Part shown: one piece after another, positions 10,114 to 44,000 of the stretch
Position numbering within the stretch: position 1 is the stretch's first letter
Layout of the letters: each line of letters starts with the position of its first letter
From: Candidatus Obscuribacterales bacterium
Lineage (GTDB): Bacteria > Cyanobacteriota > Vampirovibrionia > Obscuribacterales > Obscuribacteraceae
Direction: 5' to 3'
DNA length: 64,000 bases
Assembly (NCBI GenBank): GCA_965228855.1
Contig: CBDDIJ010000003.1
Span: forward strand, 224,001 to 288,000
Made by a program: the position numbers and the translations under genes
Notes under the pieces: generated by a model
What the model saw: only the letters and a program-made list of their open reading frames with translations
What the model was told of the DNA's origin: nothing
The model's database searches: none

Positions 10114-10185
<72 letters not shown>

Positions 10186-38392: not shown

Positions 38393-40077
<1,685 letters not shown>

Positions 40078-40804: not shown

Positions 40805-41019
40805 TGTTACCTCCGGAGGCAAACGCGCTGCGCTGGGAGCTGGAGTGCGACTCGTCGAGGGACGATGACTCGCGTGGAGCCTCCAGGCAGTTTTCTGACT
40901 TTTACTATAGTAAACGATTGAACGATTTTTGTTTAGTCGTTCAATGTTAAATCGACATAAGTCGCCCAACTTCTCCGCTCTCGTCCGCGCCGACCGCCCG
41001 CTGCCCCCTTGCTCCCCTG

Positions 41020-41051
41020 CTCCGCTACTCCGCTACTCCGCTACTCCGCTA
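41020..41051. repeat. (CTCCGCTA)4 tandem repeat
   Basis: Read directly. Confidence 0.9.
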
Positions 41052-41182
41052 CTGCGCCTATTCTCCTCTCGGTATGTTTAGAAGGGATTTCGTATGCCGC
41101 CTGCGGAATGGGTTCCAGAGGTATTCCTCCCGAAGTATCAAATTCGCCTCGGTCTAATACTGCCAGCGGAATAGTGGAGAGC

Positions 41183-41264
41183 GGAGAAGGAGTTGCTGGT
41201 GAGCGGAGAAGGAGTGGTGGAGAGGGAGAAGGAGTTGCTGGTGAGTGGAGAAGGAGTGGTGGAG
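41183..41264. repeat. Purine-rich 42-bp-period duplication
   Basis: GGAGAAGGAGTTGCTGGTGAG(C/T)GGAGAAGGAGTGGTGGAG at 41183 and 41225. Confidence 0.9.
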
Positions 41265-41469: not shown

Positions 41470-41498
41470 TGGACGCCCATCGAAAACTTGGATATGAT
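41470..41498 (+). promoter_or_regulatory. Putative promoter of RNA B1
   Basis: TGGACG-N17-TATGAT; the same geometry recurs at B2. Confidence 0.5.
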
Positions 41499-41501
41499 TG
41501 A

Positions 41502-41697
41502 TATTGATACCAATAACAGATGCACAGGACTACCTGCGGTGGTCCACAACAATTGTCTGGCACGAGGCATTTAGACCCTCGTTAATAGGTAGAAATTGAG
41601 CGGAGATTGCACGGCAACCTCCGTTGATGGTGGCGCATTTAGTACCACTACAACGGGTTGTCGGCTTTGCGTTGAGTGGCTGTCCATGCGAATCTTC
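41502..41697 (+). ncRNA. Unassigned structured RNA 'B', copy 1
   Basis: ~195-nt homolog of 42171-42367 with compensatory or G-U-tolerated changes in several stems. Confidence 0.6.
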
Positions 41698-41830
41698 GTG
41701 AAATCGCTGATAAAAATGCTGTAACTGTTCCAGTGCAGAATTGGCTTGTGGTTCCGGGTTTTTGATGTTTGTCTGGCTGGTCTTCTCTCCGATGGATAGC
41801 GGCTTTCGTCGGACGCTAAAAAATTTTCTT

Positions 41831-41877
41831 AAAACAAAAATGGGGGACTTCCGCGCGGGGAATTCTGTTGGTATATT
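41831..41877 (+). promoter_or_regulatory. Putative promoter of RNA A1
   Basis: A-tract UP-like element, TTCCGC-N17-TATATT with extended -10 TG. Confidence 0.55.
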
Positions 41878-41880
41878 AGT

Positions 41881-42092
41881 AAATGAAGACGGTGAGTGAC
41901 TTGAAACGAAGCCACTTTGAGCCGAGGGGCAATGCGGAAACGGCAGGTTGGCGCCCAACCGGATACGACAGCAAGCAGCCCGCTAAGCGTGAAGGACTAG
42001 CTGAAGCGCTTTGAAATACTGAGCCTGTGCAACAGGCAGCTAGACGGTAGCTTGAGCACCACTGCAACGTAAGTTGGGTGGTGTTTTTGTTT
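41881..42092 (+). ncRNA. Unassigned structured RNA 'A', copy 1 (includes terminator)
   Basis: 212 nt, ~95% identical without indels to copies 2 and 3; covarying hairpin; GNRA-capped terminator followed by a T tract. Confidence 0.7.
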
Positions 42093-42138
42093 GCGGATCT
42101 TTCTCAAAAAAATATGGTGCCAAGATGTGCAAAAGTCG

Positions 42139-42167
42139 TTTACCAGCGGCATGTTGTTGGGTATGAT
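42139..42167 (+). promoter_or_regulatory. Putative promoter of RNA B2
   Basis: TTTACC-N17-TATGAT. Confidence 0.5.
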
Positions 42168-42170
42168 AGT

Positions 42171-42367
42171 TATTGATACCAATAACAGATGCACCGGACT
42201 GCCTGCGGCGGTCCAAAATAATTGTCTGGAACGGGCATTCTAAATCCCGTTGAAATAGGTAGAAATTGAGCGGAGTTTGCACGGCAATCTCTGTTGATAG
42301 TGGCGCATTTAGTACCACTAAGACAGGTTGTCGGCTTTGCGTTGTCTGGCTATTCATGCGACTCTCG
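42171..42367 (+). ncRNA. Unassigned structured RNA 'B', copy 2
   Basis: Homolog of B1 with compensatory stem changes. Confidence 0.6.
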
Positions 42368-42499
42368 AAGATCTGTGGTGTCGAATGTGGTGCGTATTTC
42401 TCCTGCCGGTGCAGTGCTGTTGTTCAAGCGTTCGCTGGCGGTTTGAAAAATATAGAAGCGCATGGATACTCATACTTGGCTTGCTCAAAAAAGTTTTTC

Positions 42500-42547
42500 A
42501 AAAACAAAAAAGGGGGTCTTCCCATGTGCATGATTCGTTGATATAGT
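42500..42547 (+). promoter_or_regulatory. Putative promoter of RNA A2
   Basis: A-tract, TTCCCA-N17-TATAGT with extended TG. Confidence 0.55.
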
Positions 42548-42550
42548 TAT

Positions 42551-42762
42551 AAATGAAGACGGTGAGTGACCTGAAACGAGGTCACGTTGAGCCGAGGGGC
42601 AATGCGGAAACGGCAGGTTGGCGCCCAACCGGATACGACAGCAAGCAGCCCGCTAAACGTGAAGGACTAGCTGAAGCGTTTTGAAATACTGAGCCTGTGC
42701 AACAGGCAGCTAGACAGTAGCTAAAGCACCGCTGCAACGCAAGTTGGGTGGTGTTTTTGTTT
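42551..42762 (+). ncRNA. Unassigned structured RNA 'A', copy 2
   Basis: Exactly 670 nt downstream of A1; 11 substitutions, no indels. Confidence 0.7.
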
Positions 42763-42978
42763 TGGAAAGTTTTTCTGAGTCACCGCTGACGGTGCGCGCC
42801 GCCAGGCGTCGCTGCTCCCGTCTCCTGGCTTGCTGAGCGCTTCTTGGCAGGCGAGACTGGATTCACGTGAGAAGGTTCGAGCAGCAATACTGGTCTGTTG
42901 TTCAATGGATGCGAGAACAACTGCGTTTCCGAAACCCTTATGGATAGCTCTTATACATGGTTCCAGAAAGATTTTCTG

Positions 42979-43025
42979 AAAACAAAAAAGGGGGTCTTCC
43001 CACACGCATGATTCGTTGATATAGT
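42979..43025 (+). promoter_or_regulatory. Putative promoter of RNA A3
   Basis: A-tract, TTCCCA-N17-TATAGT with extended TG. Confidence 0.55.
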
Positions 43026-43028
43026 TAT

Positions 43029-43240
43029 AAATGAAGACGGTGAGCGACTTGAAATGAGGTCGCTTTGAGCCGAGGGGCAATGCGGAAACGGCAGGTTGGC
43101 GCCCAACCGGATACGACAGCAAGCAGCCCGCTTAGCGTGAAGGACTAGCTGAAGCGCTTCGAAATACTGAGCCTGTGCAACAGGCAGCTAGACGGTAGCT
43201 TAAGCACCACGGCAACGCAAGTTGAGTGGTGTTTTTGTTT
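43029..43240 (+). ncRNA. Unassigned structured RNA 'A', copy 3
   Basis: 478 nt downstream of A2; 11 substitutions versus A1, no indels. Confidence 0.7.
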
Positions 43241-43529: not shown

Positions 43530-44000
43530 ATGACGGACAAGCTTCAAGTGAAAGTCGAGCGACTCGCGCACTGCAAAGAACTCCCTCGCTACGCCACCCC
43601 TGGCTCTGCCGGCATGGACCTGACCTTTGCTTCGGAAGAGCCGATCACGGTAGCGCCCGGCAAGCGCGCCAAACTCGCTACCGGTATCAAGCTTGAAATC
43701 CCGTTCGGATACGAAGCGCAGATTCGTCCCCGCTCGGGTCTGGCCGCAAAGGCGGGCATCAGCCTCACGAATTGCGTCGGCACAATCGATAGCGACTACC
43801 GCGGCGAAGTGATGGTTTTGATAATCAATCATGGCGACGAACCTTATACATTCAGTCCAGGTGAGCGTATTGCCCAGATGGTGATCGTGCCGGTTCCGGT
43901 CATCGAACTTGTTCAGGTCGAACAAGTCGCAGACACTGAGCGGGGTGAAGGCGGTTTCGGTTCGACCGGCAAAACTGCTCTTGCCGCCAACGGCGCTTAA
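43530..44000 (+). CDS. dut: dUTP diphosphatase
   Basis: SAGMDL, RPRSGLA, GTIDSDYRGE, RIAQ and RGEGGFGSTG motifs. Confidence 0.97.
   Translation: MTDKLQVKVERLAHCKELPRYATPGSAGMDLTFASEEPITVAPGKRAKLATGIKLEIPFGYEAQIRPRSGLAAKAGISLTNCVGTIDSDYRGEVMVLIINHGDEPYTFSPGERIAQMVIVPVPVIELVQVEQVADTERGEGGFGSTGKTALAANGA

Follow-up and report, generated by a model that had tools for sequence, protein, structure and literature searches.

An undescribed, narrowly distributed structured element beside the orphan RNA poplar-1 in Obscuribacterales

Results

A conserved element directly upstream of poplar-1

We describe a structured element, B, that lies beside the known orphan RNA poplar-1 (A) in an Obscuribacterales bacterium; it is real, undescribed, and narrowly distributed. 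In the window (the whole stretch of DNA analyzed, 64,000 nucleotides), B and poplar-1 fill the 2.6-kb gap from a TetR-family gene to a dUTPase gene (43530-44000, + strand) in the order B1-A1-B2-A2-A3, with every element on the + strand. The dUTPase gene is the constant downstream neighbor of the cluster and is followed by dapB, asd, and dapA homologs. The range that a first-pass annotation assigned to B (41502-42367) comprises B1, the poplar-1 copy A1, and B2, each B being shorter than 200 nt. The genome has exactly two copies of B and six of poplar-1.

B1 and B2 share 87% identity; the 120-nt spacers that follow them share 52%, as expected from the shuffled baseline (52 +/- 3%). Since the spacers are at the shuffle level, the likeness of the two copies points to selection and not to a fresh duplication. 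Within the genus, B copies are 75-95% identical and the spacers 48-64% (shuffled 52 +/- 3%). The assembled contigs of one sequencing run, probably of DNA, show a related strain in which B1 is kept and the spacer has the same length but a diverged sequence. Neither B1 nor B2 has a match at or above the gathering cut-off among the 4227 families of Rfam 15; at E-values up to 10 there is nothing on B, and three matches other than poplar-1 lie far below the cut-off. Leaving aside the supplement of PMC5737381 and the motif catalogues outside Rfam, the literature searched holds no description of B. B has no conserved reading frame: short leaderless frames occur in the same-genus copies, but indels break them between species and they are absent from the copy scanned in a second genus (g15).

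By BLAST, B is present in five of seven same-genus genomes and in none of 53 others. Two same-genus genomes lack a match; one has its dUTPase gene at a contig start, and the other has neither B nor poplar-1 before the dUTPase gene. A covariance model of the whole element (R1) matches seven of the 107 genomes of the order and adds two diverged copies in genus g15, where an insertion separates the two halves of B. A second model, built on the 3' half (R2), adds one more copy (genus g23, 58 bits), which is cut by a contig end. The score gap is clean, with B copies at 58 bits or more and everything else, apart from a reverse-strand echo, at 24 bits or less. This gives 12 copies in eight of the 107 genomes, from three uncultured genera related to cyanobacteria. 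In all 12 cases the next element downstream is a poplar-1 in the same orientation, and all are part of the cluster that precedes the dUTPase gene. B is always found with A, but the reverse fails: most poplar-1 copies overall, and four of the six in this genome, are without B. In a tree of 11 B copies, the tandem pairs group as three separate events, or as homogenized pairs.

We also searched more widely with strict sequence patterns, which would miss diverged forms of B. They find seven loci in 185,579 species genomes, all of them in Obscuribacterales, and none in 150 other genomes of the phylum or in viral contigs, phages, and plasmids. Four metagenome loci match, of which three repeat copies already counted and one is a chance match. 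There are no terminal inverted repeats or flanking repeats around B and no dispersed copies (two copies, one locus), and nothing marks it as the end of an insertion sequence (IS).

The neighbor, poplar-1

The first-pass annotation proposed two unrelated RNAs, A and B. They are indeed unrelated, with no shared sequence or model match; A, however, is a known family, poplar-1 (Rfam RF03041), while B is without a match. The three A copies of the cluster score 129.3, 133.5, and 129.5 bits over model positions 1-141 (cut-off 110.5). A1 (41916-42054, + strand; 129.3 bits) has a hairpin and a U-run behind it, reaching about 42092, and is preceded by a promoter region with a GGGG-ACTTC box and a -10 (41842-41877, + strand). 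A2 (42586-42724, + strand) and A3 (43064-43202, + strand; no B upstream) have promoters at 42519-42547 and 42997-43025, respectively. Because each poplar-1 copy has its own promoter and terminator and poplar-1 also occurs without B, it does not depend on B. Poplar-1 is found in 37 of 39 other genomes of the order and in none of 21 outside it.

Poplar-1 is said to come from one earlier published study. The word "poplar" is absent from the main text of PMC5737381. A preprint reports that poplar-1 is enriched in the intracellular RNA of a drinking-water metatranscriptome (10.1101/2025.10.18.683149). The present work ties this orphan RNA to a host order and a fixed promoter layout, and both RNAs are open to test in enrichment cultures and metatranscriptomes. 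Three further copies without B lie elsewhere in the genome (C3:2278454-2278996 and C3:433459-433599), and other genomes have up to 12 poplar-1 matches each, often in tandem.

Pairing changes in four helices of B

B had been read as a multi-hairpin element under selection on pairing, and the B1/B2 sequences and changes quoted for it are all present at the stated place. Across the homologs, pairing changes support four of its helices, i-iv. The 5' domain (41517-41559, + strand) is predicted to contain a CAGAU/GUCUG helix, an internal loop, and a hairpin, GGACURCC-KGC-GGYRGYCC (41527-41545). This hairpin, helix i (42196-42214 in B2), shows an A-U to G-C change from B1 to B2; over 11 copies it is 98.9% paired and two of its eight pairs change on both sides. 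Helix ii (41562-41582, + strand; 42230-42251 in B2) is a hairpin of variable sequence whose stem is rebuilt between B1 and B2. It is 78% paired with 3/7 two-sided changes, counted over nine copies in a poorly alignable region. The linkers, described earlier as invariant, are identical in B1 and B2, yet they are partly paired rather than plain linkers: besides CAGAU/GUCUG, a UACC/GGUA pairing is present in the nine same-genus copies. Since both pairings are invariant, they are uninformative on covariation. In the 5' domain the sequence at unpaired sites is kept and the stems drift, and the same is true of the cap loop of the long rod described below.

Over the nine same-genus copies, 92.7% of the cells for 46 pairs are formed and nine of the 46 pairs change on both sides. 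None of 500 shuffles reaches nine, and slid controls give one or two. The covariation as a whole draws on 12 related copies in a sequence-only alignment, the shuffle ignores relatedness, and the structures were derived from these same sequences; we therefore take the result as support for the structure and not as proof.

Two mutually exclusive folds in the 3' half

The 3' half of B is predicted to adopt two mutually exclusive folds, and both are conserved. They share one arm, segment Y (41612-41625), which pairs either upstream with X (41600-41610) or downstream with Z (41652-41663). The short hairpin X:Y is helix iii (41600-41625, + strand; 42270-42295 in B2) and is 85% paired, with 5/11 two-sided changes across the 11-12 homologs. 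The long rod Y:Z (41612-41663, + strand) pairs a GTTGTCG segment with CGGCAAYC; it is 86% paired with 7/21 two-sided changes and is capped by helix iv (41628-41650, + strand; 42298-42320 in B2), which is also 86% paired (2/8 two-sided changes across the 11-12 homologs). Helix iii thus stands as a pairing, but it competes with a more stable rod that excludes it. A fifth helix (v), proposed to close the conserved segment of B, was rejected: 68% of its cells are paired, and the ensembles give it 0.0 expected pairs in every one of the 12 copies. That segment pairs in the rod instead.

In transcripts cut before Z, X:Y has 7.1-10.8 expected pairs, and shuffling X reaches the native X:Y pairing in at most 4 of 100 trials in 10 of the 12 copies (7 and 13 in the other two). 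With Z present, Y:Z is the more stable by 2.8-7.6 kcal/mol in 11 of the 12 copies, the exception being copy G005a, which prefers X:Y in the full 3' domain. Barriers for refolding from X:Y to Y:Z are estimated at 6-17 kcal/mol.

Promoters and ends of B

Each B begins 6-7 nt after a TATGAT hexamer with a spaced -35. Upstream of B1 is a sigma70-like promoter (41470-41498, + strand; TGGACG, 17 nt, TATGAT), from which transcription would start near 41504-41505. The site before B2 (42139-42167, + strand) keeps the -10 TATGAT and has a diverged -35. Every complete B copy has its own promoter-like site. In the 10 complete copies printed, the -10 is always kept (TATGAT in nine, TATTAT in one), and the -35 is TGGACG or TAGACG in eight. 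The promoter scan scored no opposite-strand promoter at B. In 4 of 10 copies, folding is about as good on the minus strand, so the strand call rests on the promoter and on G-U pairs.

From this start the RNA body of B1 would run from 41504 to 41675 (+ strand, about 170 nt) and that of B2 from 42173 to 42345 (+ strand). The B1 body is marked out by its conservation relative to the spacer, by a minimum-free-energy (MFE) z-score of -3.9 without the tail, and by the models R1 and R2. We infer that B ends at a U-rich tract after the rod (41664-41675, + strand in B1), which may act as a weak terminator tail or as a partner of X; pairing between the tract and X amounts to 0-6.4 expected pairs. A length of about 170 nt replaces the roughly 200 nt estimated in the first-pass annotation, because the conserved 3' end counted there probably belongs, as a DNA element, to the promoter region of poplar-1. 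The nine nucleotides after the rod hold 4-6 U in all 11 copies scored (4/9 in both B1 and B2), compared with 8/9 at the poplar-1 terminator. The terminator scan scored no canonical intrinsic terminator after B, in line with what had been noticed by eye, and no Rho was found above the cut-off in this 95%-complete genome. Given the weak U-tract and no Rho above the cut-off, some read-through to about 585 nt is expected. Partial read-through of B into A is therefore plausible; A has a promoter and a terminator of its own. Taken together, B is probably a transcript of about 170 nt with a leaky end.

Assembled contigs from three RNA runs cover poplar-1 (pieces 99-100% alike) and none falls on B, but such contigs cannot show ends, strand, or absence. 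A contig starts at 41900 in two runs from different studies; this is at best a weak hint and could reflect a branch at a repeat.

A candidate DNA site at the conserved tail

The last 20 conserved bases of B behave differently from the body. They end 143-146 nt before the GGGG-ACTTC box in 11 of 11 units, while the sequence of the intervening spacer is near the shuffle level (48-64%); one g15 unit was missed by the first script and shows the same offset in later motif scoring. The tail (GGCTnnyCATGCGnnTCT; 41678-41695 in B1, 42348-42365 in B2) is likely a DNA site held at a fixed distance from the poplar-1 promoter box, and we consider it probably part of the upstream region of poplar-1. A final hairpin drawn over the tail was rejected (77% paired, 0/7 two-sided changes).

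Traces of the motif occur without B. In 30 dUTPase-linked poplar-1 units that lack B, the mean tail-motif score rises to -1.3 at the position of the tail and +1.2 at a second position about 50 nt before the box, compared with -3.5 to -5.9 elsewhere, whereas 29 other poplar-1 units score -5.9 and -3.7 at those two positions. An inverted second copy of a tail-like motif lies about 50 nt before the poplar-1 box (41792-41799; also 42462-42469 and 42940-42947). Before A3, where there is no body of B, a weak copy of the tail (42827-42844) stands at the same distance as elsewhere; alternatively, it could be a leftover of duplication. The GGGG-ACTTC box itself is common to 70 poplar-1 upstream regions aligned on it. 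In 59 upstream regions without B (counterparts of, e.g., 41750-41852), conserved positions fall at about -92/-89, -59, -26, -18, and -14 to -10 from the box. Such spacing suggests a promoter with several phased sites, or else duplication of a unit made up of about 110 bp and the RNA.

Possible roles of B

Tentatively, we favor B as a separate RNA that probably binds a protein and whose 3' half changes its fold while being made, giving a leaky end. The predicted sigma70-type promoter of B, shortly upstream of poplar-1, would give a transcript of about 170 nt. Its 3' half is predicted to fold first as the short hairpin X:Y and then to refold into the long rod Y:Z, which likely sets the leaky 3' end, so that a minority of transcripts would run on to the poplar-1 terminator (about 585 nt). 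B would then act in trans, most likely by binding a protein, because the unpaired positions of the 5' domain and the cap loop of the rod are kept while the stems drift. The strict site upstream of poplar-1 and the three separate tandem B-A pairs would fit a role in cis equally well. In most copies a B-A duplex does not surpass shuffles, and copies differ in their best site.

The main rival, possible if on balance unlikely, is that B is a cis-acting attenuator, in which the 5' domain senses a ligand or protein, X:Y is the antiterminator, and Y:Z with the U-tract is the terminator. It would set read-through into the poplar-1 promoter region, giving either a B-A cotranscript or interference with poplar-1's own promoter. 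The two-sided changes in both exclusive helices argue for such a device, as do the U-rich tract, with 4-6 U in nine nucleotides in each of the 11 copies scored, and the constant position of B upstream of poplar-1 in the same orientation and at a fixed spacing. Also consistent with it are the missing Rho (none above the cut-off) and the modular behavior of the two halves, between which the g15 insertion falls. However, a rod of about 50 nt whose cap loop is conserved would be atypical as a terminator, and the low barriers mean that Y:Z would usually win unaided. With the g15 copies taken into account, no pairing of the 5' domain with X, Y, or Z is conserved. Rfam gives no riboswitch match, and poplar-1 has its own promoter in every copy. 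Should read-through into poplar-1 be under the control of B, the target of this attenuator would be another non-coding RNA.

A third reading, which we regard as distinctly improbable, takes B to be the front portion of a B-A precursor; read-through would be obligatory, nucleases would then cut the product, and the rod would protect the 3' end of the B piece set free. It would explain why there is no canonical terminator, only a weak U-tract in B1 and B2 (4/9), and it agrees with the lack of a detected Rho. A separate poplar-1 promoter nevertheless lies between B and A in all units, and the spacer that such a precursor would contain is unconserved in sequence.

The behavior of the last 20 nt as a DNA site raises the question of whether all of B is conserved DNA (protein-binding sites), or else the remnant of a mobile or selfish repeat, and not a functional RNA. 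The slot beside a tRNA-Thr gene, with about 31 kb between the tRNA and B1 in this genome, could be read in the same way. Against this stand the two-sided pairing changes in four helices, the single locus with neither dispersed copies nor terminal repeats around B, and the lack of a match in viral contigs, phages, and plasmids; we hold it to be very unlikely. Least likely, and very improbable, is that B is an antitoxin or antisense RNA, or else an mRNA for a small peptide in a toxin-antitoxin module. Type I toxin mRNAs do have metastable early hairpins that later refold, and short leaderless frames exist in the same-genus copies of B, but these frames are broken by indels between species and absent from the g15 copy scanned, the cluster has no toxin-like ORF and no scored opposite-strand promoter, and the B-A duplex is mostly no better than shuffles, with no constant best site.

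Other elements in the slot of B

We fetched 60 regions upstream of the dUTPase gene; poplar-1 is within reach in 34, often after an opposite-strand tRNA-Thr gene. In several lineages the position of B is taken by another stretch, 250-330 nt long and promoter-led, that has some two-sided pairing changes; genera with such slot elements include g3, g4/g54, g6, g16, and g50. Five such structured stretches, lineage-specific and mutually unalignable, lie between tRNA-Thr and poplar-1 (loci L059-L061, L063-L069, L083, L105, L073, L088, L095, L103, L104), and each may be a new RNA family. In the loci scanned, none of the slot elements has a match in Rfam. Four of them were tested and are found in 11, 1, 3, and 6 of the 107 genomes; each is confined to its own lineage with one match per genome, and none occurs in a B-bearing genome. 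In genus g6, two slot stretches each precede a poplar-1, the same layout as the B-A units here. In genus g16 the slot element has a hairpin and a U6 run at its end, as would suit a slot that yields discrete transcripts.

The B models R1 and R2 detect no homology in the slot elements of other genera. Local alignment of B with them is borderline in g3 only, where 1 and 12 of 200 shuffles reach the score, and null for eight others. B could be one lineage form of a variable-RNA cassette, with poplar-1 as the constant part and a fast-changing partner before the dUTPase-linked copy; in the case of B, the partner would be a two-state switch controlling a second non-coding RNA and not a protein gene. 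We think this rather unlikely on present data. If the slot elements are orthologs of B, they would represent very fast turnover of RNA sequence beside a conserved partner.

Comparison with known RNAs

B is most readily placed among the orphan structured RNA motifs of bacteria found by comparative genomics, the class of poplar-1 (Rfam type Gene; sRNA). Like these, it is intergenic, promoter-led, multi-hairpin, and covarying, with no ORF and no assigned function. As judged on 12 related copies only, it is conserved above its flanks and has compensatory pairing changes and no conserved frame. Unlike the orphan motifs of Rfam, B falls outside the 4227 families, is narrow in range, has two exclusive folds, and occupies a slot shared with unalignable elements. 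B and poplar-1 are both orphan structured elements in one cluster and on one strand, each with its own promoter or promoter-like site, but poplar-1 is order-wide and multi-copy, whereas B is at one locus in three genera, and the two share no sequence or model match. B would be an undescribed family of structured RNA whose two-fold design can be tested; its narrow range limits its present interest.

In transcription attenuators and riboswitch expression platforms, which work by antiterminator/terminator pairs, two segments, one upstream and one downstream, vie for a common arm, and behind them lies a U-rich tract. B resembles them in the competition of X and Z for Y and in the U-rich tract downstream. 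The differences are that B precedes a non-coding RNA gene driven by a promoter of its own, that the would-be terminator is a 50-nt rod followed by a weak U-tract, and that there is no match to a known aptamer. 6S RNA, tmRNA, RNase P RNA, and SRP RNA are stand-alone structured RNAs of a similar size class, but none matches at B. We rejected B as a 6S RNA (no end-to-end long stem with a central bubble, no RF00013 match) and as a missing tmRNA piece (an Rfam tmRNA lies elsewhere, at C2:2199557-2199945 with 137.7 bits, though ARAGORN missed it). Also rejected were a type I/III toxin-antitoxin (no adjacent or overlapping conserved toxin ORF), an IS end or MITE (two copies at one locus, no flanking repeats), and a CsrB/RsmZ-type sponge: CsrA (PF02599) was not found in the genome, which is 95% complete, and the predicted hairpin loops of B are without GGA. 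RNase P RNA and SRP RNA, like tmRNA, are present elsewhere in the genome above the cut-off. A weak 6S RNA candidate lies on another contig (C2:813651-813889; 28.8 bits, below the cut-off of 46.4).

Further features of the locus and genome

In this genome, tRNA-Thr(CGT) at 10114-10185 is about 31 kb from the B1 promoter at 41470, while the tRNA-Thr to B gap is only about 300 nt in two other genomes (G005 and G021). An insertion or rearrangement at the tRNA is a possible origin of the separation. Upstream of B1, positions 41014-41053, 41183-41264, and 39928-39977 include short tandem repeats (an 8-mer and a 42-mer) and a poly-glutamine codon run in an MFS transporter gene. An A-rich stretch (42488-42510) and a T-rich stretch (42754-42774) flank poplar-1 copies as imperfect inverted repeats; they are probably an A-tract and the U-run of a terminator and not element ends. 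Elsewhere, the genome has a 21-gene tRNA array (C3:724518-727973) and a smaller one of five genes (C3:1529761-1530653), with some odd anticodons.
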